Positions 221-12,065 of a stretch of 12,065 nucleotides of DNA are shown in pieces. Within the stretch, counting starts at the first letter, position 1. Each line of letters opens with the position of its first letter. This DNA comes from a virus (lineage: Duplodnaviria > Heunggongvirae > Uroviricota > Caudoviricetes). The DNA lies in the IMG/VR virus record IMGVR_UViG_2579778856_000001. The stretch is one strand, 5' to 3'. The translations under genes were made by a program, and so were the position numbers. The notes beneath the pieces are model-generated. The model saw only the letters and a list, made by a program, of their open reading frames with translations, made no database searches and was not told the DNA's origin.

Positions 221-395
221 CGGCGGTCAGTTTACGCTTACGTCCCTTCTGGTCAAAATGGACGAAGAAATGCTCTGCTTCTTCGACAGCAACGGGCGAA
301 CCACCATGCCCCGTAAAGCTTTCTCCCTGCGTACTGGCGTAACCCGCCGCCAGCTGTTTCCAGACGCCATTTACTTCATTGAACGGGAGTTCTGA
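210..395 (+). pseudogene. Probable C-terminal remnant of the gene that preceded the radC-like gene, cut off by the IS insertion
   Basis: 61-codon ORF whose ATG lies at the predicted IS boundary. The frame only opens at 192 (TAA at 189-191). Its TGA (393-395) sits one base before the radC-like ATG (397), the tight coupling expected of the original operon partner. No recognisable domain. In CP4-type islands the gene upstream of radC-like is usually an antirestriction (KlcA/ArdB-like) or YeeR-like gene; that is inference only. Confidence 0.25.
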
Positions 396-396
396 C

Positions 397-849
397 ATGA
401 CCATGTTTACCCAGCGTGAAACCCGTATCCTTGACCAGGCGCGTGACATTATTAGCCGGTACTACCAGCGTGGGGTTCAACTCTGTTCCCCTGATGATGT
501 TCGACGGTGCGTGATGGTTGAGCTGGCACCGCTTGAACATGAAGAGTTTGGCATCATCCTACTCGATAATCATAATCAGCTGCTGCACCGCGAAATCCTG
601 TTCAGGGGTACGCTAAACTCGGTCAGCGTTCACCCCCGTGAAGTTATTAAGCGTGTGCTGAAACATAACGCCGCCGCCGTCATCCTTGTCCATAATCACC
701 CCAGCGGCGAGCCTGAACCCAGCCGGTGTGACATCCAGTTGACCAAAAAGCTTCAGGAGCTGCTGGAAATACTGGATGTGCGGTTACTTGATCACTTTAT
801 CGTGGCAGGAACTGAAACGGTGTCGATGGCTGAGCGAGGACTGGTGTGA
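397..849 (+). CDS. RadC-like JAB/JAMM-domain protein (DUF2466; YeeS/YfjY/YkfG-type of CP4 cryptic prophages)
   Basis: Translation MTMFTQRETRILDQARDI...HPREVIKRVLKHNAAAVILVHNHPSGEPEPSRCDIQLTKKL contains the complete JAMM signature H-x-H-x7-S-x2-D (HNHPSGEPEPSRCD) and the HPREV motif of the RadC family. The ORF track's TTG start at 379 is less likely than ATG 397 or 403. Confidence 0.85.
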   Translation: MTMFTQRETRILDQARDIISRYYQRGVQLCSPDDVRRCVMVELAPLEHEEFGIILLDNHNQLLHREILFRGTLNSVSVHPREVIKRVLKHNAAAVILVHNHPSGEPEPSRCDIQLTKKLQELLEILDVRLLDHFIVAGTETVSMAERGLV

Positions 850-895
850 TGCTGAAAGTTACTTGGTTTAATGTACGTTATTGCGGGTTACGCGC

Positions 896-1825
896 ATGAG
901 CAGGACAGCGTTGCGTCAGGTCGTGCCGGTGGTGCAAACCACCGTGTTCGATGCGTATATTGTCGGTCTGGCCCCCTCGGGACGGCGAGGTATCACCAGC
1001 CTGTTAAACCGCAGCGCCAGCATACTTAAACACGGTGCGGATGCAGCAGACTATCCGTGGGAACAACTTAACTACGCCGCCGTTGCCAAAGTGCGCGCGG
1101 CACTGCTGGATGACGGTTACGCCGTGTCATCGGTCAACATGGCGCTGTCAGCACTCCGGGGCGTAGCGCAGACGGCCTTTAACCTCAATTACATGGATGC
1201 CGAAACGCTGGCACGTATCCGGTCAGTTAAGCGCGTGAGCGGCGATGTCCAGCGCAAGGGAAGGGCGCTGGGCAGGCAGGAAATCCGGGTACTGATTCAG
1301 GCTGCAAAACAGCATCCGCAATCTGTACGGCGCTGTCGCGATGTCGCCATTGTGCTGATGCTTTGCGGAACGGGCCTGCGGGCCGGGGAACTGGTTAAAC
1401 TTGAGCGCCGGGACTATGACAACGGCATCCTGACGGTGAGGCAAGGGAAGGGGCGTAAATACCGTGAAATTCACGTGGCGGATGCGGTGGACAAGGCTAT
1501 TCGTGCGTGGCTGAAAGTTGGCGCAGACGAGGCTGACAGTGCGTTGTTTAGGCGAATTCAGCGCAGTGGTAAGGTCGCAAGCCAACCGCTGACTACGACC
1601 GGGTTAACGGGTATCCTGGCTGAGTTACAGCAAACGGCAGGTATAGCACGTTTTACCCCGCATGATATGCGGCGCACCTTCATCACCCGTTTGCTGGAGC
1701 AGGGCGTGGATATCAATACCGTCCGCCAGTTGGCAGGCCACAGCGACATATCCACGACGACGCGCTATGACTGTCGTGGTGATACTATGAAGATCAGTGC
1801 CAGCAAGCGCATCAGATGTTTTTAG
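896..1825 (+). CDS. Tyrosine site-specific recombinase / integrase (small, about 309 aa, XerD-like size)
   Basis: Catalytic-domain signatures are present: LRAGEL (Arg), GKGRKYREI (Lys), HDMRRTF (His-x-x-Arg), GHSDISTTTRY (His ... nucleophilic Tyr). ATG 896 preferred over the track's TTG 881. No N-terminal DUF4102/SAM-like extension typical of P4-type integrases. Confidence 0.85.
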   Translation: MSRTALRQVVPVVQTTVFDAYIVGLAPSGRRGITSLLNRSASILKHGADAADYPWEQLNYAAVAKVRAALLDDGYAVSSVNMALSALRGVAQTAFNLNYMDAETLARIRSVKRVSGDVQRKGRALGRQEIRVLIQAAKQHPQSVRRCRDVAIVLMLCGTGLRAGELVKLERRDYDNGILTVRQGKGRKYREIHVADAVDKAIRAWLKVGADEADSALFRRIQRSGKVASQPLTTTGLTGILAELQQTAGIARFTPHDMRRTFITRLLEQGVDINTVRQLAGHSDISTTTRYDCRGDTMKISASKRIRCF

Positions 1826-2426
1826 CAGTTGAGGCGTTGCCAGACTCGGTTTCAGTTTCATCTTCAGCACTCAACCGCGCGTACTTTTGATTCTGGATGT
1901 TAATTTGTGCATTGATATTTTCAGGCTGAAGCATCCACGCAACATCCTCACGCGCCCATTCTTTACCGTCAGAGAGTCGTTTTAACCGGGGTTTCCATAT
2001 TCCATACTCATTAAGTTTTTCTGCTACCGAAGCATATTTCTCACGATCTGACTCCCCCGTATGAAGCTTGTCAAAACGACCTTTTACAAGCTGGTAAACA
2101 GTATAGATTTCCAGTGCCTTAGGGGACCTGGCCGGGACTATCATGGGGTGTTCCTCCGGCCTATAAATCCCGTTTGGCTCTCCCTCATTGAGCAGGTCAT
2201 TAAACATGTGGTTCACGCAGGCACTCAGCACATCTGCCGCTTTCTCCGCAGCGAATTTATCCGGGCTAAAACCCGCTCCCGTCAGTTTCCGGGCAATCAG
2301 TGCCAGTTTTTGCCGGGTATCCCGTCCCAGATAAAGCTTCTTCTCCAGAAATTCAAAGACCTCGTTACTGCTTTTCCGTTCCCGGTGGCATCTGGCGTCA
2401 GCCTTGTTGCTTTGGTTACCAATCAT
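1812..2426 (-). CDS. Hypothetical protein (204 aa), convergent with the integrase and divergent from alpA; candidate island repressor or accessory gene (the position yfjH occupies in CP4-57)
   Basis: Long minus-strand ORF. The second ATG (2426) is preceded by GGAGGTGA with a 4-nt spacer (minus strand reads ATGGAGGTGACTATGATTGG). Predicted product MIGNQSNKADARCHRERKSSNEVFEFLEKKLYLGRD... is mostly helical and acidic at the C-terminus, with no domain I can name. Its 3' end overlaps the int stop by about 14 bp. Confidence 0.6.
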   Translation of the reverse strand: MIGNQSNKADARCHRERKSSNEVFEFLEKKLYLGRDTRQKLALIARKLTGAGFSPDKFAAEKAADVLSACVNHMFNDLLNEGEPNGIYRPEEHPMIVPARSPKALEIYTVYQLVKGRFDKLHTGESDREKYASVAEKLNEYGIWKPRLKRLSDGKEWAREDVAWMLQPENINAQINIQNQKYARLSAEDETETESGNASTAKNI

Positions 2427-2445
2427 AGTCACCTCCATGACAGTG

Positions 2446-2457
2446 TTTTGTACAAAA
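2446..2457. promoter_or_regulatory. Perfect 12-bp palindrome TTTTGTACAAAA, 20 bp upstream of the 204-aa gene start, in the divergent int-side/alpA-side control region
   Basis: Read directly: ...cagtgTTTTGTACAAAAtatcacc... is self-complementary over 12 bp. It sits in the 5' leader/promoter of the minus-strand gene, so it is a candidate operator. Confidence 0.35.
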
Positions 2458-2648
2458 TATCACCATTGAGCCTCAGTGAAAATTGCTTCTTTATATGACC
2501 GTTCTGGAGACAGAAATAGATGATCTCGAATGACATCCACATTAAAGATGCCCTTAACGTGCTCAACGAAGGCATCGTTGAGTGAATCCTTGCGTTTTTT
2601 GGTGGTTGTAAATAACCCGCTCCTGAAACAGCTCAAAGGAGCACAAGC

Positions 2649-2846
2649 ATGAACACCAACCGTATTTTGCGTAAAAAAGAGGTACTTCATCTGACGGGGA
2701 ACTCGTCAGCGACGTTGTACCGACTCATCTCGAAAGGATTCTTTCCTTTGTCAAAGAGGCTAACGGGCGACAATGGCCGGGCGGTAGGCTGGCTGGAGAG
2801 TGATATCAATAACTGGGTTAACAGCCGTATGCAGGCGGGAGAATGA
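2649..2846 (+). CDS. alpA: AlpA-family phage transcriptional regulator (MerR-like HTH; P4 Vis / CP4-57 AlpA type)
   Basis: 65 aa: MNTNRILRKKEVLHLTGNSSATLYRLISKGFFPLSKRLTGDNGRAVGWLESDINNWVNSRMQ. Shows the canonical AlpA pattern (L/I)R.xEV..LTG.S.sTiYRli..G.FP....L....VGW.esei..W. AGGAGC lies 7 nt upstream of the ATG. Confidence 0.85.
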   Translation: MNTNRILRKKEVLHLTGNSSATLYRLISKGFFPLSKRLTGDNGRAVGWLESDINNWVNSRMQAGE

Positions 2847-2847
2847 A

Positions 2848-3315
2848 ATGAAAGAGATAAAATCGAAAACCAGTTCTGCGAAAAAAACGCTGGTTCCTTG
2901 GTTCGAAACTATGGGGAAACAGGTTGGTTTATCACAAGAAACGATATCAGCAGTGTTAAAGGAGCAGCGTTTACGGATACGTAAGCTTAACTACGCATCT
3001 GCATATACAGTGTCCAATATTCTCATACAGGATTGCGGCGGGGCCGATGACATGTGGAGCAACTACGCTAAACTGGCGCTTATCCTTGAGCGTTGTAAAT
3101 ACATTCCCTGCGGGAGCAGGGCCTGTGCATATTGTTCTACCGCTCAGCAATTACATTATCAGGGGGTGGATGTAACCGGGGAATACGCTTTATATCAGTT
3201 GCCTGAGTTATTTTTAGATTTTTTAGAAACAAACGACAAAAATTCCTCTTATCATTGGGATTACAATAAGTTAGTTGAGCGGCATGAAGATGCTCAGGCG
3301 AGGTCATTCGGGTAA
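2848..3315 (+). CDS. Hypothetical protein (155 aa), translationally coupled to alpA; Cys-rich patch CKYIPCGSRACAYC
   Basis: ATG 2848 lies 1 nt after the alpA TGA (GAATGAAATGAAA), with GGGAGAA upstream. The track's 2800 start is an in-frame upstream ATG inside alpA and is less likely. The C-x4-C-x4-C-x2-C cluster suggests a possible metal site. No family recognised. Confidence 0.6.
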   Translation: MKEIKSKTSSAKKTLVPWFETMGKQVGLSQETISAVLKEQRLRIRKLNYASAYTVSNILIQDCGGADDMWSNYAKLALILERCKYIPCGSRACAYCSTAQQLHYQGVDVTGEYALYQLPELFLDFLETNDKNSSYHWDYNKLVERHEDAQARSFG

Positions 3316-3402: not shown

Positions 3403-4257
3403 ATGAACGATTCTTATTACTTCAGAACATCTGACCCGGATTACATTCGTCACGCACCGTCAATGCTTGAGATTTTAAGTAAAGCATTCCCCACTATTAT
3501 TACCCAGCAGGAAAGTGAGTATGAACTGCAGCGTCTTAACCATTTACTAAATAAACTGAAAGGCAGCAATCGCTGCTACAACATCATTGCTCAAAAACTA
3601 AGGCAGTGCAGAAACGGATCTCCATGCAACAGTCTTATATGCCCGCATTGCCAGCGGGAACGCATTCTGGCGCAACTGGCTATGTTGCATGTCTTGCCGG
3701 GGAATTCAGCAGAATACGTGGGAGTGGTCCTGTTTTTCAACAAGGATACGCAAACTCCGCCGCCATGGAAGAACATTGGGGCGCTCAGGGCGCAAATCGG
3801 TCGTTATAAGCAGAGGATAAGCCGGGTACTTAACCGCCTGGGGTACGCCGGTCCGGCCACAGGCACCTTCAGTATGATGCGACATATGCCTGATGGCCCA
3901 GAAGAGCGTATTTTCTGGGTTCCACAGTTGTGTTTGTTCCTGCCCAATGACAGTACGTTGATTAAGGGGCTAAAAGCGCATATGTCGCGAAGTGGTGGGG
4001 CATTCATTGATGCATCGACGCTTAACACACCAGTGATCGTGCTCAGGTATAAAGATCCCGCGAGACTGATTTCATGCGCCCTGAATCCAGTCTGGCACAC
4101 AGCAGATTACACACTGACTGATAAAGACGCTCTTGTTAAGTCAAGAATGGAGCTACTGAAAGGCCGGACACTGTTAAAAAGTCTGCTTACCCTGGACTCA
4201 CTCGGAACAGGTGTCGTTTCTTTTTCGTTTGGGCAACCCCCAGGGAAAGTGCACTGA
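3403..4257 (+). CDS. Hypothetical protein (284 aa) with cysteine cluster RQCRNGSPCNSLICPHCQRER; candidate replication/DNA-binding component of the alpA operon
   Basis: ATG 3403 preceded by AGGAATATTAA. Continuous 284-codon ORF in the same orientation as alpA. C-x5-C-x4-C-x2-C resembles a zinc-ribbon. No confident family assignment. Confidence 0.65.
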   Translation: MNDSYYFRTSDPDYIRHAPSMLEILSKAFPTIITQQESEYELQRLNHLLNKLKGSNRCYNIIAQKLRQCRNGSPCNSLICPHCQRERILAQLAMLHVLPGNSAEYVGVVLFFNKDTQTPPPWKNIGALRAQIGRYKQRISRVLNRLGYAGPATGTFSMMRHMPDGPEERIFWVPQLCLFLPNDSTLIKGLKAHMSRSGGAFIDASTLNTPVIVLRYKDPARLISCALNPVWHTADYTLTDKDALVKSRMELLKGRTLLKSLLTLDSLGTGVVSFSFGQPPGKVH

Positions 4258-4833: not shown

Positions 4834-6231
4834 GTGAGTACTGAAAAGGATTATCCAGTGAAGATCCCTAAGTGGGTTTATGACCGTATTACTGAAATAA
4901 CGGATTATGTCGTGGGGGATACGCAATGGGCTGTTACCCGGCGGCAGACAGTACGGTGGTTCCTGGCTCACATATGGCTGGAAACAGACGATGATGGCTG
5001 GACTATATGCACTGTCCGGGATATCCGTAGCAGCTATGCCAGTCTCCTGGGACAGTGTGAAATTAGTTACCAGGGGGAGTGCTTTATGTCCACGCTAACT
5101 GATTTCCTGCCGACACTTTCGGATATTGAATTTCGTGCAGGAAAAGCGAGCAAAGACCCGGAAAAGCGTAGAGCCAGTGCATGGCGGTTCAACCCCCTGC
5201 TGCCTGTGTGTGATGAGTCTGCCAGGGGTAAGTTAAATCTGGTTGACTTGGATACTGGTGAGTCTGTTAGTTTTAGAGCTCTGCTTCAGGGGAACGGGAA
5301 AGCTCCTGGGCATGCGATAGATGTAGAGAAACGCCAGACGGCCCTAAAACAAACGGAAAAGGACTTCTTGGCCAAAGTTGGGCGGGGGCGCATGAGTATA
5401 CAGTTTGTGAAGGAATTGCGTAGCCGTGAGCCGGATCACTATTACCGCGCAGGAATACGCAGCCTTAACCATCTCTACAATGGCAGGATTGAGGGACAAT
5501 ATGTCACTTACGACCATCATTATCGTCTGACGTTTGGAGGGCGGTATTATGATCAAGCTTTCCAGAATCTGCCCAATGAGTTCAAAGCTAAATTTCGGAC
5601 CGGGTTACTCAACTATGACATCGAAGCGTGCAATCTGGCCTGTCTGAACCATCTGTTCAGACAGTATGACGTCGATTATCGTGTGAAGTCATCGATATAT
5701 AAAACCATGATGGAACATACCGGGCTGACCCGTAAACAGTGCAAACAGATGGTCCATACCACCACCTACAGAATTGGGCGTGTGACTATTGGTGTTAATG
5801 ATGGCCTTGGGGCAAAAGTGTATGGATGGTGCGGTAACAGCAAAAAAAAGGCGCTAAAGATTTTGCGTTGGTGGAACCGTTATATCAGTCCATTGAAATC
5901 TGCGCTTGAGTCATTGCTGGAACGTGTGCATGGCGCACACCGCAAGAGTTGTTCATCACCGCGTAACTATCACAGGTACGCTAATGAAGTCGGATTAATA
6001 CTGGATCTTAATAGTGAGGTGTATCAGCGTGAAAAGACTCACCATCATCAATATGCGCGGAATAAGGCACTGTTGGCGTTTATGATCTGTGGTGTGGAGC
6101 AGGCGTATATCCGTGAGGTTGTCAGTATGAACCCTGGTCGTGTCTGCATGCTGGATCATGATGGGGTAGTGGCAACGGGCGCGCTTTCACTACCGGACTG
6201 GCGTGGTTTCACGATGAAAGTGAAGGACTAG
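4834..6231 (+). CDS. Hypothetical protein (465 aa) occupying the position of yfjI in CP4-57; carries motifs reminiscent of right-hand (PolA/T7-like) polymerase motifs A, B and C
   Basis: GTG 4834 is the first start after the in-frame TGA at 4822, with GAGAGGGG 3 nt upstream. Motif-like segments: LLNYDIEACNLACLNHL (aa 258-274), RKQCKQMVHTTTYRIG (aa 300-315, R-x3-K-x7-Y) and MLDHDG (aa 439-444). Spacings of about 42 and 139 aa are similar to Klenow's D705 / K758 / D882. Whether this is a real polymerase fold is unverified. Confidence 0.7.
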   Translation: MSTEKDYPVKIPKWVYDRITEITDYVVGDTQWAVTRRQTVRWFLAHIWLETDDDGWTICTVRDIRSSYASLLGQCEISYQGECFMSTLTDFLPTLSDIEFRAGKASKDPEKRRASAWRFNPLLPVCDESARGKLNLVDLDTGESVSFRALLQGNGKAPGHAIDVEKRQTALKQTEKDFLAKVGRGRMSIQFVKELRSREPDHYYRAGIRSLNHLYNGRIEGQYVTYDHHYRLTFGGRYYDQAFQNLPNEFKAKFRTGLLNYDIEACNLACLNHLFRQYDVDYRVKSSIYKTMMEHTGLTRKQCKQMVHTTTYRIGRVTIGVNDGLGAKVYGWCGNSKKKALKILRWWNRYISPLKSALESLLERVHGAHRKSCSSPRNYHRYANEVGLILDLNSEVYQREKTHHHQYARNKALLAFMICGVEQAYIREVVSMNPGRVCMLDHDGVVATGALSLPDWRGFTMKVKD

Positions 6232-6355: not shown

Positions 6356-7050
6356 TGTGAGTTCAACGGGTCGATGCAACGCTGTCCCTAATCAAGGGGG
6401 ACGTTGCCATGAAACGAAGAACTCGTATTAACTACACGCCAGAGCAAAAGGTGATTATTTGGGACAGATATAAGCAAGGTGATTCCCTGCATGATATCCC
6501 CCAGAATGTTCGACAGATTTCACTCTACTATCATGCCTACAATCCACCAGGCCGGTGGCTACCGTCCTCCCGTGCGAAAGCGGCACCGGTTAGCGTTTTC
6601 GCTTGATGAAAAAGAGGAGATATCCAGAGGACTGGTAGCAAAACGCATCATCAGGGACATCGCTGCTAAATTATCAATAGCTCCCTCAACGATTAGCCGC
6701 GAGATCAGGAGGCACGGCGGTGCAAAACAATACCGTGCAGCAAAAGCCGATCCTGCTGCGTGGGAAAATGCTCTGAGACCAAAACCTTGCAAGCTAATTG
6801 AAAGCCCCACATTGTGTAAAATCATTGCAGAGAAGATGCATCAGGACTGGTCGCCGGAACAAATTGGCGGTTGGCTAAAACGCTGTTATCCCGATAATCA
6901 GGAAATGCATGTGTCACATGAAATGATTTATAAAACGCTTTTTATACCAACCCGGGGAGCTTTAAAAAAAGAGCTGCAGCAATGCCTCAGAAGCGGAAGA
7001 GTAGTGCGTAGATCCAAAACCTCATCACTTAAAGTAAACAGAGATACATT
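6356..7050 (+). mobile_element. IS30-family insertion sequence remnant (left IR plus the 5' two-thirds of the transposase gene; 3' end deleted)
   Basis: 6356-6380 TGTGAGTTCAACGGGTCGATGCAAC resembles the IS30 left terminal IR (TGTAGATTCAATTGGTCAACGCAAC, from memory). The transposase start lies about 53 bp inside, as in IS30. Homology to the IS30 transposase stops near aa ...KVNRDT (about 7048), well before the DDE domain. Confidence 0.7.
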
Positions 7051-7090
7051 CTGGTCACGAATGCCCGGTTGTTCGTGCTTTGCGTTTTAA
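6409..7090 (+). pseudogene. IS30-family transposase, frameshifted (in the C5 run near 6500-6505) and C-terminally truncated
   Basis: Frame 1 (6409..) MKRRTRINYTPEQKVIIWDRYKQGDSLHDI matches the IS30 N-terminus pattern MRRTFTAEEKASVFELWKNGTGFSEI. Frame 2 (from about 6489) ...RMFDRFHSTIMPTIHQAGGYRPPVRKRHRLAFSLDEKEEISRGL...WSPEQIGGWLKR...YKTLF... matches the IS30 HTH region (...ERKRAVAHLTLSEREEIRAGL...WSPEQISGWLRR...YKTLY). The switch between frames occurs at atcCCCCCag. The last about 13 codons (FWSRMPGCSCFAF) are non-homologous read-through. Confidence 0.75.
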
Positions 7091-7227
7091 TCGCATTTTA
7101 CAGTTTCTGCCTGCGTGCAGAGGTTGATGGTATTTTCTGAAAAAGCGGCTCGCTTTGCTAATGCATATGGCACAAATACAACAGTTTGTGTCATTCTGAC
7201 CCATCTTTATACCGCGACGGTGGAAAC

Positions 7228-9798
7228 ATGGATGAGCTGCTAACCCTTGGCTGCATTGCTTTATTCTTCGCACTGGTGGTGGTTCCCATCCTCGCGATTA
7301 TCGCGCTCAGCCGCAGCACGGCTGTTCGTTCTGAGCTGGCGACCCTGCGTCGCCGGGTGGAGGTGCTTGAGCAGCGCGGTGTGACTGAAGCACCCGCCAC
7401 AGTGGTAACAACTGTGCCGCAGAGTGTTTCGCAGATGGTTGTGCCTGTTGAAACGTCTTCGCCTGCGGTTAACATCGTGCTGTCGGAGCCTGTGGCTGAT
7501 GTCACGCCTGAGTCCGTTGACCCCTGGCGTCCACAACCGAAGCCGCAAAACGAGGCGCTACCCACACCAGCGGTCGAACAATCTTCCGCTTTTGGTGGGG
7601 TGATGTCGTCCCTGGTGCGCTGGTTTATGCAGGGCAACCCGCTGGCAAAGCTGGGTATTCTGCTTCTCTTCCTTGGCTTCTCCTTCCTGCTGCGTTATAC
7701 GGTTGAACACTCCCTGTTCCCGCTTGAGCTACGTCTGGTGGCGACTTCGCTGTTTGCGATTGCCCTGCTGGTAGTGGGCTGGCGATTGCGGCATAAACAG
7801 CTGGTTTATGCGCTGATCATACAGGGTGGAGCTACGGGGACGCTCTATCTCACCGTTTTTGGCGCATTCTGGCTCTGGCAGATGCTGCCGATGACGCTGG
7901 CGTTTGCATTACTGGTGGCGATTTGCGCGGCGAGCGTGGGACTGGCGATTATGCAAAAAGCGCTCAGCCTCGCGATGCTGGCAAGTATCGGTGGCTATCT
8001 GGCACCGCTGTTGCTTTCCACCGGCGGCGGTAGTCATGTGGCGCTCTTCTCTTTCTACCTTCTGCTTTCCGTCGGTATTCTCGCCATCAGCATCTGGCAA
8101 CACTGGCGCGAGCTTAATCTGCTTGGCCTGTTATTTACCTTTGGTATCGGCGGTCTTTGGGGACTCGACGGCTATCGATCAGAGTATTACCTGAGCAGTC
8201 AGCTTTTCCTGATAGCCAATACGATCATTTTTGGTGTGCTGAGCGTGGCGCTATCGCTACGAGCACAGGAGAAAGGTAAGCAGATTATTGATGGCGTGCT
8301 GTTGTTTGCATCGCCGCTGGTCGGTTTTGGCATGCAGTACGCCATAACCCGGCATATGGAATATGGTCCGGCGCTTAGCGCGCTGGGTTACGGCGGTTTC
8401 TATCTGGCGTTAGCATGGCTTGCATTGCGTCGCTATCCCTCTTTGGGGAGGCCGCTGGTGCTGGCGGCGCTGGCGCTGGGTGGGGCATTTACCACGCTCG
8501 CTATCCCACTGGCGCTTTCGGCCCGCTGGACGGCGATGGCCTGGGCGCTGGAAGGTCTCGGCATCCTCTGGCTGGGCGTGCAACAGCAGCAGCGGCGTAT
8601 GAGCTATAGCGGCACTGCGCTGCTGGTGCTGGCAGTGTGCAGCGCGCTGTGGGCGCAGATGAACGGGATGAGCGCGCTTTCTCTGGTGCTAATCTTTGCC
8701 GTACTCAGCCTCAGCTGGCTGGCTGCCGCCTGGCTGTGGCGCAATATTCAGTTGCAGGGTAGTTGGGTTCTGTTGGCTGGCGGTTTGATCTTCTGGATAA
8801 TCGCGCTCATTGGGGCATCGCAACTGGTGCTGAAAAAGGACTCGCTGGTGCTGTCTGGCGTGCTGGCGTTAATGGCGATATCGGTCTGGGGCTGGCGGAT
8901 TGTCTCTGGTCGTCTGGCCTGGTGGGAGCTGGATGTCAGCAAATGGTTGCTGTGGCCGACGATGCTGGTGATGCTGCTGTCTCAAATTTCACAACATGAG
9001 ATTTTTGCTGCGGGCTGGCAGAATCTGGCCTGGTGTCTGGCGTTACCCGCTGCGGGGGCATTGCTCTGGCGTGATGCTGAGACGTTGCCGCCGCGCCTCT
9101 CCAGACTGGCGCACCTTTCACTCTTCTGGATGATTCTGCTCGCGCTGGCGGCGGAGCTATTCTGGTTTGCGCAAGATCTGCCATGGGGCATGGCGGCGTG
9201 GGGCTCCGGCCTGATGATGGCCGCGGGGGGCCTGCTCATCTTTCTCGTTCATGAGGCGGTTCATCGTCAGCTATGGCCATTCCGAAGCTGGCCCGCACTC
9301 TACGCTTCTCAGGCGATGATACCGGTAGCTGCGGTATTGGTTGTTCTGCTAGTACTGACGAATTTGCAGGATGGCGTAGTTTATCGCCAGACCTGGCTGC
9401 CGCTGGTGAATCCACTGGAGGAGGGGGCCGCTTTTGCGCTACTGGGACTCATTGTATTTTATCGCGTTTCGCAGCGCTTTTTCCCGGTGCAGATTTCGGT
9501 ATGCCGTCCCTGGCCGCTCATTGCACTGCTGGCGCTTAGCTTCTGGTGGCTGAATGGCATCCTGCTGCGCGCATTGGCCTGGTACGGCGAAGTGCCCTGG
9601 AGCGCGGAAACACTGTGGCATTCGCGGCTGATTCAGACCTGTTTTGCCCTGTTCTGGATGCTGGCGGCATTAGTGGTGATGCTACGTGCGACCCGGCGTT
9701 GCTCACGTCGCGAATGGCTTTGTGGATCCGTATTGTTAGGGATTGTTATTGTGAAACTGATGTTGGTAGACAGTGCGCGTGGCGGCGGCCTGGCATGA
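7228..9798 (+). CDS. Large polytopic inner-membrane protein (856 aa). Architecture: N-terminal TM + coiled-coil + Pro-rich linker + more than 20 TM helices, as in DUF2339-family proteins. Probably chromosomal backbone
   Basis: ATG 7228 is preceded by GGTGGAAAC. The track's 7186 start lacks an RBS. Uninterrupted 870-codon frame. Very hydrophobic, L/A/W-rich repeats of predicted TM segments. Visibly higher GC than the flanking island genes. Family call is from recalled architecture only. Confidence 0.75.
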   Translation: MDELLTLGCIALFFALVVVPILAIIALSRSTAVRSELATLRRRVEVLEQRGVTEAPATVVTTVPQSVSQMVVPVETSSPAVNIVLSEPVADVTPESVDPWRPQPKPQNEALPTPAVEQSSAFGGVMSSLVRWFMQGNPLAKLGILLLFLGFSFLLRYTVEHSLFPLELRLVATSLFAIALLVVGWRLRHKQLVYALIIQGGATGTLYLTVFGAFWLWQMLPMTLAFALLVAICAASVGLAIMQKALSLAMLASIGGYLAPLLLSTGGGSHVALFSFYLLLSVGILAISIWQHWRELNLLGLLFTFGIGGLWGLDGYRSEYYLSSQLFLIANTIIFGVLSVALSLRAQEKGKQIIDGVLLFASPLVGFGMQYAITRHMEYGPALSALGYGGFYLALAWLALRRYPSLGRPLVLAALALGGAFTTLAIPLALSARWTAMAWALEGLGILWLGVQQQQRRMSYSGTALLVLAVCSALWAQMNGMSALSLVLIFAVLSLSWLAAAWLWRNIQLQGSWVLLAGGLIFWIIALIGASQLVLKKDSLVLSGVLALMAISVWGWRIVSGRLAWWELDVSKWLLWPTMLVMLLSQISQHEIFAAGWQNLAWCLALPAAGALLWRDAETLPPRLSRLAHLSLFWMILLALAAELFWFAQDLPWGMAAWGSGLMMAAGGLLIFLVHEAVHRQLWPFRSWPALYASQAMIPVAAVLVVLLVLTNLQDGVVYRQTWLPLVNPLEEGAAFALLGLIVFYRVSQRFFPVQISVCRPWPLIALLALSFWWLNGILLRALAWYGEVPWSAETLWHSRLIQTCFALFWMLAALVVMLRATRRCSRREWLCGSVLLGIVIVKLMLVDSARGGGLA

Positions 9799-9918
9799 TC
9801 AGACATGAGATAAATGAAGGGGGATCCGTGAGATAAATAACGAATTGGAGTGGGTTAACATGGGTTCTGGTGAACAGAACTGAAATTCTTTTCCGCTATA
9901 CGATAGATAAGTCGGGCA

Positions 9919-9948
9919 TTGAAATCATCCTTCCTGGCAACTTAGAAT
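9919..9948 (+). promoter_or_regulatory. Sigma70-like promoter TTGAAA-17 bp-TAGAAT upstream of the 53-aa ORF
   Basis: Read directly: TTGAAA (9919-9924), 17-nt spacer, TAGAAT (9943-9948). Predicted TSS about 9955, leaving a roughly 37-nt leader to ATG 9992. Confidence 0.4.
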
Positions 9949-9991
9949 CGAGTTTGCTGAAACATGACCCGCAACAAAAAGGATGATTCCA

Positions 9992-10153
9992 ATGACTACT
10001 CAAAACAATAAGCATGATAGCCTGGATTACTCAGAAAAGCCCAAAAGCAAGCACATCGTGACGTTCGAGCGCGATTCCGGTAGAAAAGGAGAATCGTCTT
10101 CCTCTGCCAATAAAACCACTATGCCGGCAGCCCCTGCCCCAGGGAAAAAATAA
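9992..10153 (+). CDS. Small hydrophilic protein (53 aa; MTTQNNKHDSLDYSEKPKSKHIVTFERDSGRKGESSSSANKTTMPAAPAPGKK); not in the supplied ORF track (below its length cut-off)
   Basis: ATG 9992 has AAGGA 8 nt upstream and the promoter above. K/S-rich, no TM, predicted disordered. Stop TAA 10151-10153 lies 3 nt from the stop of the convergent membrane gene. Confidence 0.4.
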   Translation: MTTQNNKHDSLDYSEKPKSKHIVTFERDSGRKGESSSSANKTTMPAAPAPGKK

Positions 10154-10156
10154 ACA

Positions 10157-10789
10157 TCATTCATCGTTCGTTGCACGAACGCGCCTGATCTCCACTCTGG
10201 CAATCTGATCTGCTGGAATATAGGTTGCCAGAGCTCCCCAGTACTTATCAACCACGCCTTTATACTCTTCCCATTCGTTACTGCCTGAAGGGCTGCTGTG
10301 CGTGACGTAAAGAACCATATCGCCTTTATTCCCCAGGGTAAACGGACCGTTAGGCCACTCTTCAAAGTTCCCTGGCAGCCGTGACATCATACCGGAACCA
10401 TCGCGAAGAATCACTCTGACCTCGGTAACGCTGAAGCCTGTTTGATCAAACATTGCCTGCCATGCTGAGCTGGTATCGTCAGACCATGAAATATCATTAT
10501 TCCACAGTAATCTGTACATCCATTTGCGACCGTACCTGCGCCACCACGCACCGCATGTAAGGGCACACAGAAGTGCTGGTGGTGTTGCCAGCCAGGCATT
10601 CAGACCTGCCCACATAACAGCCTGGTAAGCCATCATTGCTGTCAGGCCAAAAATCAGCGAAGAAAAAGTCACCTCAATGGGCTTGTGGTGATCCTTCAGT
10701 CCCACATTCGCAATAAAATACCCAATATAGCCACTGGTCAGGGTCACCAGTGTTGCCCATGGCAGATTTAACAACGAAACGTCAAACAT
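10157..10789 (-). CDS. Hypothetical membrane protein (210 aa): three N-terminal TM helices plus about 120-aa soluble C-terminal domain
   Basis: Start ATG 10789 (MFDVSLLNLPWATLVTL...) is preceded by GGGAGAAAAT. The track's longer start (10867) would run through the mor terminator hairpin and is rejected. TM segments approximately at aa 8-30, 38-62 and 68-83. The C-terminal domain ...GNKGDMVLYVTHSSPSGSNEWEEYKGVVDKYWGALATYIPADQIARVEIRRV is of unknown family. Confidence 0.65.
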   Translation of the reverse strand: MFDVSLLNLPWATLVTLTSGYIGYFIANVGLKDHHKPIEVTFSSLIFGLTAMMAYQAVMWAGLNAWLATPPALLCALTCGAWWRRYGRKWMYRLLWNNDISWSDDTSSAWQAMFDQTGFSVTEVRVILRDGSGMMSRLPGNFEEWPNGPFTLGNKGDMVLYVTHSSPSGSNEWEEYKGVVDKYWGALATYIPADQIARVEIRRVRATNDE

Positions 10790-10824
10790 ATTTTCTCCCT
10801 GCATCCTGAATACTAAAGAGAGAG

Positions 10825-10866
10825 CATAAAAAAAGCACGGTAAGGGGTCTACCGTGCTTTTATACA
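10825..10866 (-). terminator. Rho-independent terminator of the gemA-mor transcript (hairpin AAAGCACGGTA-AGGGGTC-TACCGTGCTTT; T7 run on the minus strand); partly bidirectional
   Basis: 11-bp perfect stem 10832-10842 / 10850-10860, 7-nt loop. The minus strand continues TTTTTTTAT (complement of 10825-10831). The plus strand continues TTTTATAC. It lies 38 bp downstream of the mor stop. Confidence 0.65.
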
Positions 10867-10903
10867 ATAAGGAGATTTTTGAAAGGACTTTAACAAGCAG
10901 GAA

Positions 10904-11302
10904 TTATCTGGATTTGTTAACGTCTTTCGTCTCCTCTGGCAGATCTTCATCAAACAACCTGCCCTGCATCCGATCCAGTTCTTCTTTTCTGACCCGCTTA
11001 ACCACGCTGTAGACCCACTGAAGCGAAACACCAAACTTGCGGGCCAGTTCGTGGTGGTTGCGTCCGTTAAACTCCCTGAAGATTTCCCGGTCGCGCTGAC
11101 TGACCTTCCATACCATGCCCATCGGGAAATAAACGTTTTGCCCGCCCCAGACCTGCATCATTCGGTTCGCGACGGCCTGACCAATCTGGTCGGCAACTTC
11201 GGGCTCAATATCAATAATCTCGCGAACGGTCTCAGAGGTATGCTGTGCCAGTTCCACCAGGAGTTCCGGCCCCTTACTTCGAAACTGATTCAGGTCGCTC
11301 AT
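10904..11302 (-). CDS. mor: Mor-family transcriptional activator (phage Mu middle-operon regulator / C family), 132 aa
   Basis: MSDLNQFRSKGPELLVELAQHT...VYFPMGMVWKVSQRDREIFREFNGRNHHELARKFGVSLQWVYSVVKRVRKEE. The RDxxIxxxFNGxNxxELAxK(F/Y)G(V/L)Sxxx(V/I)Y C-terminal HTH is characteristic of the Mor/C family. RBS GGAGTCAAAC-ATG. Overlaps the gemA-like 3' end by 29 bp. Confidence 0.75.
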   Translation of the reverse strand: MSDLNQFRSKGPELLVELAQHTSETVREIIDIEPEVADQIGQAVANRMMQVWGGQNVYFPMGMVWKVSQRDREIFREFNGRNHHELARKFGVSLQWVYSVVKRVRKEELDRMQGRLFDEDLPEETKDVNKSR

Positions 11303-11726
11303 GTTTGACTCCCGCAGCTCTGCGCTGCCACTTCTTCAGTTTCTCAATAACACTGCTTGCCTGTTCAGTACTGAGCCAGCGCAGGGCGCTGATGCCCGTT
11401 TCCCGCTTGATCCACCGCGCTAATGCATTTTCTGAACGGTCACGAACAATGCCGGCAGCAGCCATTTCAAGCCATAGCGCACGGATTTTCCTGGACTGCG
11501 GATGGTTATCCAGCGGTAAACCGGAGCTGGCTTTTCCGGCAGGCTTAACGCGAAAGCCTTTCCTTTTCATGGATTCCAGCACGCAGTTTAGTTGTGTGGT
11601 ATCCATTCCTTTGGTTGAGGCTTTACCGGTCAGCCCCTGTAACATCTGGCGGTAGGTGTCTTCATCCATACCCAGTTCATTACGGGCAATATGAATGAGC
11701 TGGATAAGACGTTGTTTAGTCATCAT
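11274..11726 (-). CDS. gemA: Mu gp16/GemA-like protein (DUF1018 family), 150 aa
   Basis: From the ATGATG at 11726, with AGGAG 5 nt upstream: MMTKQRLIQLIHIARNELGMDEDTYRQMLQGLTGKASTKGMDTTQLNCVLESMKRKGF... The N-terminal motif is typical of Mu-like gp16/GemA proteins, as is the location immediately upstream of and overlapping mor. The track's earlier start (11765) is in frame but lacks an RBS. Confidence 0.7.
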   Translation of the reverse strand: MMTKQRLIQLIHIARNELGMDEDTYRQMLQGLTGKASTKGMDTTQLNCVLESMKRKGFRVKPAGKASSGLPLDNHPQSRKIRALWLEMAAAGIVRDRSENALARWIKRETGISALRWLSTEQASSVIEKLKKWQRRAAGVKHERPESVSK

Positions 11727-12065
11727 CGTTGCTCCTTTTACCTGCGCCACCGATATAATCGACATATAAAGGAAGCGCCACAGGCCAGCACAGGAACATC
11801 ACCGACCAGCTAATCCAGTAGCCAGCACCACTGTAACGTGAATAAAACCCTGAACGGCGGTGCAGTTCAGCAGTACACCAACCGACAAAACAATACCAGA
11901 ACAGGGCACATACAACAGATTCAGCCGTCATTCTGAATATCCCCCCAACTGATATGAATATTACGGGCAGCAATGACAGGGTCGTTATTCCACCATGCAC
12001 CTGACATGTATTTTTCAACCTGTTCGCGTCCGGCAATAACACCAATTGTGATCCCCGGCCTGACG
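11716..12065 (-). CDS. Hypothetical small membrane protein, partial (frame open to the window end); its 3' end overlaps the gemA-like start
   Basis: Minus-strand frame is open from the window edge (12065) to TAA at 11716-11718. Predicted product has two hydrophobic segments (LSLLPVIFISVGGIF, VVCALFWYCFVGWCTA) and an acidic tail. The internal TTG/GTG start at 12045/12042 is uncertain. Confidence 0.4.
   Translation of the reverse strand, partial: SGRGSQLVLLPDANRLKNTCQVHGGITTLSLLPVIFISVGGIFRMTAESVVCALFWYCFVGWCTAELHRRSGFYSRYSGAGYWISWSVMFLCWPVALPLYVDYIGGAGKRSNDDD

Follow-up and report, generated by a model that had tools for sequence, protein, structure and literature searches.

Some of the closest described counterparts of the gene pair analysed here come from Pseudomonas stutzeri ATCC 14405, in which three proline-rich proteins of 36-47 amino acids (aa), SEP1, SEP5 and SEP2, adjoin a DUF6338 gene and carry the tails ...PPPPKK, ...PPPPPKRDSK and ...PPPPPKKGG (PMC10433244). 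These proteins are abundantly expressed, being seen by digest-free mass spectrometry with 44-114 peptide-spectrum matches (PSMs), the DUF6338 protein itself going undetected, and their authors regarded them as not conserved beyond P. stutzeri, possibly of de novo origin, and part of a predicted same-strand operon (PMC10433244). A literature search for DUF6338 returned this paper alone. In a 12,065-nucleotide (nt) stretch of DNA from a Caudoviricetes virus (IMG/VR record IMGVR_UViG_2579778856_000001), which we refer to at its full length as the window, a 53-aa basic hydrophilic microprotein gene (positions 9992-10153, plus strand; phrog_15726) converges tail to tail on the gene of a 210-aa membrane protein (10157-10789, minus strand; phrog_12870). 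Compared with the published description, the microprotein shares the features of the P. stutzeri proteins: it is basic, shorter than 60 aa, has a proline-rich tail ending in K or R, and lies beside a gene attached to the DUF6338 family, although its tail, PAAPAPGKK, is the weakest of the set. In both settings one to three such small proteins flank the membrane-protein gene. Unlike the P. stutzeri arrangement, every related locus examined here has the genes convergent, and the small genes are conserved in two proteobacterial classes. The exact SEP sequences were absent from the protein collection we searched, and a degenerate DNA pattern for them gave no match in viral contigs.

Convergent units that overlap at their 3′ ends are also familiar from type I toxin-antitoxin (TA) systems with an antitoxin RNA, such as txpA/RatA and bsrG/SR4 of Bacillus subtilis. 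An earlier note on this DNA, made from its letters alone, had claimed that the two stop codons lie 3 nt apart with no terminator between them, and had concluded that the transcripts must overlap. The sequence bears out this geometry. The TAA of the small open reading frame (ORF) occupies 10151-10153, the large ORF runs from an ATG at 10789 to a TGA at 10159-10157, and the spacer between them is ACA (10154-10156). A terminator scan found none at the junction, and RNA folds of the junction were no better than shuffled sequence on either strand (z -0.9 and -0.6); a hairpin of 6-7 bp within the end of the large ORF (~10165-10181) lacks a U-tract. RefSeq/PGAP annotation of an identical copy has both coding sequences as in the window. 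For the small ORF, the ATG at 9983 would give 56 aa and that at 9992 gives 53 aa; the latter is preferred because an AGGA lies 8 nt upstream of it and because it produces the conserved N-terminus MT(T/N)QNN (in the window, MTTQNN..LDYSEKPKS).

The step from geometry to overlapping units also appears sound, as abutment without a terminator is kept in about 30 divergent loci. Because this tail-to-tail abutment is conserved and no terminator intervenes, the two transcription units are bound to collide. The locus resembles type I TA systems in its convergent units with a predicted 3′ overlap, which the DNA geometry requires (3 nt, no terminator), as well as in its prophage location and in having a putative effector targeted to the membrane. 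Type I toxins, however, are hydrophobic peptides shorter than 60 aa and their antitoxins are non-coding, whereas here the candidate effector, at 210 aa, includes a folded cytoplasmic domain and faces a protein-coding gene. On both counts we rejected a type I identity.

The comparison drew on 32 non-redundant gamma- and alpha-proteobacterial loci whose large proteins are 34-90% identical to that of the window. In 28 of the 32, a recognisable convergent small ORF (33-66 aa) abuts the 3′ end of the large gene, the exceptions being one frameshifted copy and three loci without a small ORF. Most loci have stop-to-stop distances between -20 and +7 nt; the distance is +18 in one locus and +43 in another. 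A type II TA identity was rejected, since that would call for a co-directional operon and the genes are convergent in all 28 loci.

The surroundings of the cassette vary widely. It is found at the ends of Mu-like prophages, after mor, at many insertion sites; in P2-like elements; at siphophage moron positions near tail genes, Ant or HigB; in a Rhizobium island with SMEK, PRTase/DprA-like and AAA_15/21 genes; and in transposase/integrase and ICE-like (integrative and conjugative element) surroundings. Of 5426 complete E. coli genomes, 133 (~2.4%) carry it. Comparison of these loci shows that the two-gene unit behaves as a conserved mobile cassette, its pair, convergent geometry and promoter travelling together through unrelated mobile elements.

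In two P2-like loci (L074 and L075) the gene order is Phage_portal, Ogr, the cassette, further genes and then Phage_GPA, and the interval between gpA and gpQ of P2-like elements is an anti-phage defence hotspot occupied by old, tin and other genes (PMC9122126). A 61%-identical cassette with the same type of promoter thus sits within this interval, where transmembrane effectors are common, although the window copy lies in a Mu-like prophage instead and the cassette is not among the systems described there or catalogued by PADLOC. The earlier note had likened the pair to toxin/antisense or exclusion modules, an idea that fits the neighbourhoods seen here: prophage ends, the P2 gpA-gpQ hotspot, siphophage morons, and island or ICE loci. 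The cassette shares one trait each with type I and type II TA systems, holins and MscS channels, and resembles the middle operon of Mu in position and promoter geometry. It is best classed as a putative variant among prophage accessory or conflict modules, one whose control design is convergent and which is attached to a borderline DUF6338 family.

Another account would treat the two genes as independent neighbours, their tight packing reflecting genome compaction and the microprotein acting elsewhere, for example on a host factor or in counter-defence. In its favour, phage genomes are tightly packed, the large gene is sometimes found unaccompanied by the small one, and a promoter of its own makes the small gene autonomous. 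Yet the pair is kept in 28/32 loci, which span two proteobacterial classes and no fewer than four types of mobile element, with every other neighbour changing; proline-tailed microproteins are linked to a DUF6338 gene in P. stutzeri as well; and the small ORF and the large protein's C-terminal domain have been exchanged as one block (see below). We regard independence as distinctly improbable.

The product of the small ORF contains 8 K and 8 S, with a grand average of hydropathy (GRAVY) of -1.4 and a pI of 9.7, in agreement with its earlier description as K/S-rich and hydrophilic; it is probably disordered and carries short linear motifs. The small ORF has a dN/dS of 0.11 against an 88%-identical allele and of 0.05-0.26 over unsaturated pairs, a range similar to that of the large gene (0.08-0.18). 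By this measure of sequence divergence both genes are shown to be under purifying selection, and the ratios for the small ORF indicate that it is a conserved protein-coding gene and not merely a driver of antisense transcription. Across the small ORFs, the start, the Shine-Dalgarno sequence and the motifs are kept even at <25% identity.

These data bear on the possibility that the small ORF is non-functional as a protein and that its promoter makes a non-coding antisense RNA, in the manner of type I TA systems. The convergent 3′ overlap recalls the Bacillus systems, and the large protein is indeed located in the membrane. Against this stand the low dN/dS, an open frame with conserved start, Shine-Dalgarno sequence and motifs, and the detection of related microproteins by mass spectrometry (44-114 PSMs; PMC10433244), so that we give a purely non-coding role very little weight.

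At least 1000 contigs carry this 53-aa sequence unchanged, in every case under the name 'hypothetical', and a profile search with the microprotein gathered 21 clusters, all from Enterobacterales and none of them named. The enteric small proteins follow the consensus MT.QNN..D..DYSE.PK(S/G)...V(T)...PPAP..K. The alpha-proteobacterial and remote ones carry repeated (N/S)(Y/H)xPxT motifs and end in PPPSPKKK or PPPPPPSR, and sometimes stand as two or three tandem genes, with three tandem copies in loci L030 and L032. A Rhizobium leguminosarum locus (L029, 4625-4740) has a small ORF that begins MSEKK and ends ...SYTAPTENHNRPPPPKK in another frame; this could be a copy with a frameshift, an error of sequencing in a run of Gs, or recoding. 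In Bradyrhizobium and Afipia loci (L006 5802-6844, L017, L020), conserved genes of 156 and 145 aa without a Pfam match precede the small gene on the same strand, and because of these the alpha-proteobacterial cassette may have extra components.

The small gene is preceded by a sigma-70-type promoter (9919-9948, plus strand), with TTGAAA (9919-9924) and TAGAAT (9943-9948) giving 10/12 matches. The hexamers are those named in the earlier note; its spacer of 17 nt is in fact 18. The promoter match by itself is within chance, with 3 sites found in 1.8 kb versus 1.9 +/- 1.5 expected from shuffled sequence, and this would favour the view that the prophage end is untranslated and holds only a chance ORF and a chance promoter match. 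The comparative conservation data refute that view, to which we attach practically no credence. Of 13 enteric-type loci, 11 have a promoter of the form TTGAA(A/C)-18-TA(G/C)A(A/G)T at 67-74 nt before the ATG, among them the P2-like L074; because it is kept in this P2-like context too, it belongs to the cassette rather than to the Mu end. The mRNA from this promoter would start at about 9955, with an unstructured 5′ region (fold z +0.3).

Overlapping the promoter is an inverted repeat with 16-nt arms 46 nt apart (9917-9932 and 9979-9994). One arm (9917-9932) comprises the -35 hexamer and half of the spacer; the other (9979-9994) comprises the Shine-Dalgarno sequence and ATG of the small gene. 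Covariation over nine loci supports the pairing: 81% of cells are paired, against 29-50% when the arms are slid, four pairs show compensatory changes, and none of 500 shuffles reached the observed score. Pairing is better in RNA of the minus strand (86.7% versus 81.1% for the plus strand), as is the fold (-31 kcal/mol, z -4.1, versus -22.2 kcal/mol, z -2.0). The promoter-initiated mRNA does not contain the full repeat, whereas read-in transcripts and a 3′ extension of the large-gene transcript would. The repeat could act as a translational insulator for read-in transcripts, as a 3′ structure of the large-gene mRNA, or as paired operator half-sites in DNA. Further upstream, a weak terminator-like hairpin followed by GAAATTCTTTT (9863-9881, plus strand; -9.6 kcal/mol, z -1.6), which is not kept in Klebsiella, could serve as a stop for read-in transcription from the host.

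Alignment of the window with an E. coli allele (L027) revealed an uneven pattern of divergence. The promoter-side flank, from the prophage end through the promoter, is 95-100% identical and the flank on the transmembrane (TM) side 83-97%, whereas the block between them, made up of the body of the small ORF and the large protein's C-terminal domain, falls to 38-70%. Two copies in Serratia sp. Ag1 (L011 on contig 17 and L012 on contig 29) show the same block pattern. Among 16 enteric-type cassettes, identity of the small protein tracks that of the C-terminal domain (Spearman 0.36; partial 0.36) and not that of the TM region (0.10), while the TM and C-terminal halves of the large protein are uncorrelated (-0.07). 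Because the two halves have uncorrelated histories, a recombination breakpoint is likely to lie inside the large gene; and because the tail-to-tail orientation makes the microprotein gene contiguous with the coding sequence of the C-terminal domain, one recombination tract exchanges both.

The large protein was examined by structure modelling and profile searches. The AlphaFold model contains three hydrophobic helices (residues 11-27, 37-60 and 65-97), in line with the earlier prediction of a 3-TM membrane protein. At a Kyte-Doolittle threshold of 1.4 TM2 alone is detected, indicating that the helices are only moderately hydrophobic. They are followed by a C-terminal domain (~residues 105-205) that structure comparison assigns to the Sm/SH3-like beta-barrels: an N-terminal helix leads into a five-stranded, strongly bent barrel, and this can be superposed on Sm proteins, as expected for the Sm/LSm fold. 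The protein would lie in the inner membrane with an N-out/C-in topology, which would place the barrel in the cytoplasm.

Two known architectures are similar. MscS channels have three TM helices, an N-out/C-in topology and then a cytoplasmic Sm-like beta domain, all of which the large protein would share. We rejected an MscS-like mini-channel, as no sequence or profile similarity extends over TM3 and the beta domain. Class I holins likewise have three TM helices and an N-out/C-in topology, and act with antiholin partners, as in lambda S105/S107 and P1 LydA/LydB. The large protein resembles them in its inferred topology, in the size of its TM bundle and, weakly by Foldseek, in a likeness to LydA-type holins, with a small antagonist as a shared concept; it differs in lying outside a lysis cassette and in bearing a cytoplasmic Sm-like domain of ~100 residues. 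A holin identity was rejected on the same ground, since a putative holin and SLT endolysin are encoded ~11 kb away, beyond the repressor.

The earlier note recognised no family for either product and proposed homology and structure searches. These have returned PHROG families of unknown function, a borderline DUF6338 relationship and an Sm/LSm-like barrel, with no catalogued function. The claim of no recognised family therefore stands for Pfam, NCBIfam and PADLOC, but PHROG families do exist and relatives of the large protein touch DUF6338. The window protein itself did not match DUF6338 (PF19865) even at E<=1. Weak matches were found in 19 of 34 of its homologues, running from TM2 to the start of the C-terminal domain, with a best E of 8.5e-6; against a gathering cut-off of 26.5 bits, one homologue (P0122) scored 26.8 bits and the others 23.9-25.9. 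The family, which comprises 521 clusters at 50% identity, is on this evidence at best a divergent sister branch of DUF6338. Other searches were negative: neither protein matched the PADLOC 2023 catalogue at E<=0.1, a profile search against PDB sequences gave noise alone, Rfam returned no family at gathering score over the whole window, blastn of the cassette found no match in 50,697 deposited phage genomes, and literature searches by accession number or PHROG id found nothing. A tblastn search produced a single distant Synechococcus phage protein of unknown function.

The region upstream of the large gene resembles the middle promoter, Pm, of phage Mu. A Shine-Dalgarno sequence GGGAG (10799-10795, minus strand) precedes the ATG, and a -10-like TAGTAT (10815-10810) would belong to a promoter without a -35 hexamer. 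Upstream of these lies a strong hairpin followed by T7 on the minus strand (10831-10861), a predicted intrinsic terminator after mor that may double as the Mor-binding dyad of a Pm-type promoter. With an A-tract on one side and a T-tract on the other, it folds stably on both strands (minus, -19.1 kcal/mol, z -6.6; plus, -16.7 kcal/mol, z -5.6). A hairpin and T-run of differing sequence hold the same position in 8/8 enteric loci examined. Because it is A/T-flanked and also stable on the plus strand, this hairpin is where the antisense transcript, ~910 nt from its start, could first plausibly end.

The spacing of these elements follows that of Mu. The dyad centre lies 56.5 nt from the ATG in the window versus 58.5 nt in Mu Pm, and TAGTAT lies 31 nt from the dyad centre, which puts the dyad near -43, the position at which Mor binds Pm (PMC4390567, PMC4287176). 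In the deposited Mu genome (L077, 9163-9248), the annotated Pm (9163-9233) contains a predicted terminator (9179-9200). The terminator of the Mu early operon and the activator-binding dyad thus appear to be one element, and the layout appears to be copied in the window. Lying directly downstream of mor, with a dyad upstream of its putative -10 hexamer and no -35 hexamer, the large gene is by layout the positional equivalent of the Mu middle operon, and by analogy we infer that it may depend on Mor. Both operons share the terminator-like dyad in the promoter region, centred ~57-58 nt before the ATG, and that of Mu also begins with small and membrane proteins of unknown function (E19, gp20). The Mu operon, however, ends in the late activator C, whereas here the 210-aa gene stands alone and is faced by a convergent gene.

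This correspondence speaks for a role in the phage's own lytic programme. The large protein, as a membrane protein of the middle operon, might then serve in superinfection exclusion while the phage grows lytically, in the timing of lysis or in remodelling the membrane, and the small gene would be a lysogeny lock against leaky expression, with no part in defence or addiction. The gene sits exactly at the position of the Mor-dependent middle operon of Mu, which also encodes E19 and gp20; the hairpin-to-ATG geometry matches; and in P2-like elements the large gene begins 24 nt after ogr with no terminator between. Several observations speak against a lytic role, which we consider rather unlikely. 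The cassette also occurs outside any lytic cascade, in island and ICE-like loci; it occupies the P2 hotspot of non-essential, exchangeable defence genes (PMC9122126); the prophage has a separate holin/endolysin cassette; and the hypervariable block formed by the C-terminal domain and the microprotein suggests an arms race rather than housekeeping.

We tentatively favour, at a little short of an even chance, a conflict module (exclusion, abortive infection or addiction) in which the microprotein gene restrains a membrane effector. In a lysogen, the small gene would be transcribed from its near-consensus promoter, and its transcript, starting at ~9955, would cross the whole large gene in antisense as far as the hairpin at 10831-10861 and so keep the membrane protein off. 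The microprotein would probably also bind the variable cytoplasmic domain of the large protein, through linear motifs and its PxxPxK-like tail; we propose this binding on the ground that the two vary jointly, as a single block. The large gene would be switched on from the opposite side, here by the lytic cascade (through a Mor-type promoter or read-through of the post-mor terminator) and in P2-like phages by the ogr transcript. Transcription of the large gene would then continue over the small gene and the promoter driving it; L074 has no terminator-like site on the large-gene strand until past both of these. The large protein would most likely be a membrane-acting effector, producing a holin-like lesion or a channel in conflict between phages or with the host, and the microprotein gene would be its safety catch.

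A more elaborate version of the conflict-module reading, which we hold to be doubtful in its full form, is that the effector is holin-like and forms rings through its Sm/SH3-like domain; that the convergent microprotein gene controls it twice, by its antisense transcript and by a proline-tailed ligand of the variable domain; that the variable block is exchanged in the manner of toxin-immunity pairs; and that the P. stutzeri SEPs are members of an ancient and widespread family of DUF6338 partners. The cassette would then be a kind of phage-borne conflict system not recognised before.

Several findings weigh against restraint of a membrane effector by the convergent gene. Intact large genes without the small gene are found in L014 and L015, which are decaying prophages in insect-symbiont genomes, and in the P2-like L062; because of these, strict toxin-antidote dependence is disfavoured, the large protein being not obligatorily lethal when unpartnered. 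The same-strand arrangement described in P. stutzeri means that overlap in antisense does not hold throughout the wider family. The co-variation of the microprotein and C-terminal domain fits the needs of an interacting pair, but plain linkage of adjacent 3′ ends would give the same pattern. The holin-like fold matches are not significant (E 0.05-1, Foldseek), scans of both window proteins against Pfam, NCBIfam and PADLOC gave no match, and the -10 of the proposed Mor-type promoter is clear in the window alone, being weak or unclear in related loci.

Should the conflict-module reading hold, hundreds of uncharacterised membrane proteins (the 521 clusters) and a microprotein family that annotation pipelines often call 'hypothetical' or miss would gain a testable function. 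It would also add a hitherto undescribed control design to phage accessory biology, namely a protein-coding antisense partner whose product may in addition bind the effector. The view of the P. stutzeri proline-rich small proteins as non-conserved would be corrected, as in our comparison proline-tailed partners are widespread, and convergent, in a sister branch of the DUF6338 family. At ~1 kb, with promoters of its own, a presence in ~2.4% of complete E. coli genomes and a place in the P2 defence hotspot, the cassette should be easy to clone and test. If the large gene instead encodes a middle-operon protein with a lysogeny lock, the locus would still serve as a clear-cut prophage model of how convergent transcription regulates genes.

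The cassette is the final unit in the early/middle arm of a transposable prophage of the Mu type; we identify the end of this prophage at 9796-12065. The terminus (9796-9838, plus strand) begins TGATCAG... and holds two direct copies of TGAGATAAAT (9806-9815 and 9829-9838); the opposite terminus (L072, ~23255-23300) is its inverted counterpart, with two copies of GCGATAAAT at equal spacing. Both are thus imperfect inverted repeats, with TGAT followed by two copies of G(A/C)GATAAAT ~23 nt apart, which are probable transposase-binding sites. E. coli SCU-101 carries the same element at another chromosomal site, with homology beginning at window position 9795/9796, and Klebsiella relatives at four insertion sites all end ...TGATCA. 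The flanks of the SCU-101 element share GCTTA(A), which is what a short duplication of the target would leave.

One strand of the SCU-101 prophage encodes a ner-like gene, transposase A, an ExeA-type B protein, Gam, GemA and Mor, and the opposite strand a holin, an SLT endolysin, head and contractile-tail genes and an invertase. In the window, mor (10904-11302, minus strand; Mor transcription activator family, PF08765, E 1e-43) lies immediately upstream of the cassette. It is preceded by gemA (11274-11765, minus strand; Mu gp16 family, PF06252, E 1e-40) and, upstream of that, by a 109-aa hydrophobic ORF (11716-12045, minus strand) with no Pfam match, a putative small membrane protein of the early region.

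On the host side, the prophage interrupts a DUF2339 membrane-protein gene (7186-9798; junction 9795/9796) 90 nt before its natural stop, the new stop being a TGA supplied by the first three bases of the phage end. In strain EC958 this gene is overlapped downstream by a DUF3999 gene, from which the insertion separates it. Just before the DUF2339 gene, 6409-7090 holds the frameshifted, truncated N-terminus of a transposase (HTH_38), which corresponds to a transposase pseudogene in EC958. The left part of the window (379-3315) is a separate integrative island, with a RadC-like JAB protein (379-849), a tyrosine recombinase (881-1825), an AlpA-type regulator (2649-2846) and several ORFs that belong to no family (1812-2438, 3403-4257 and 4834-6231).

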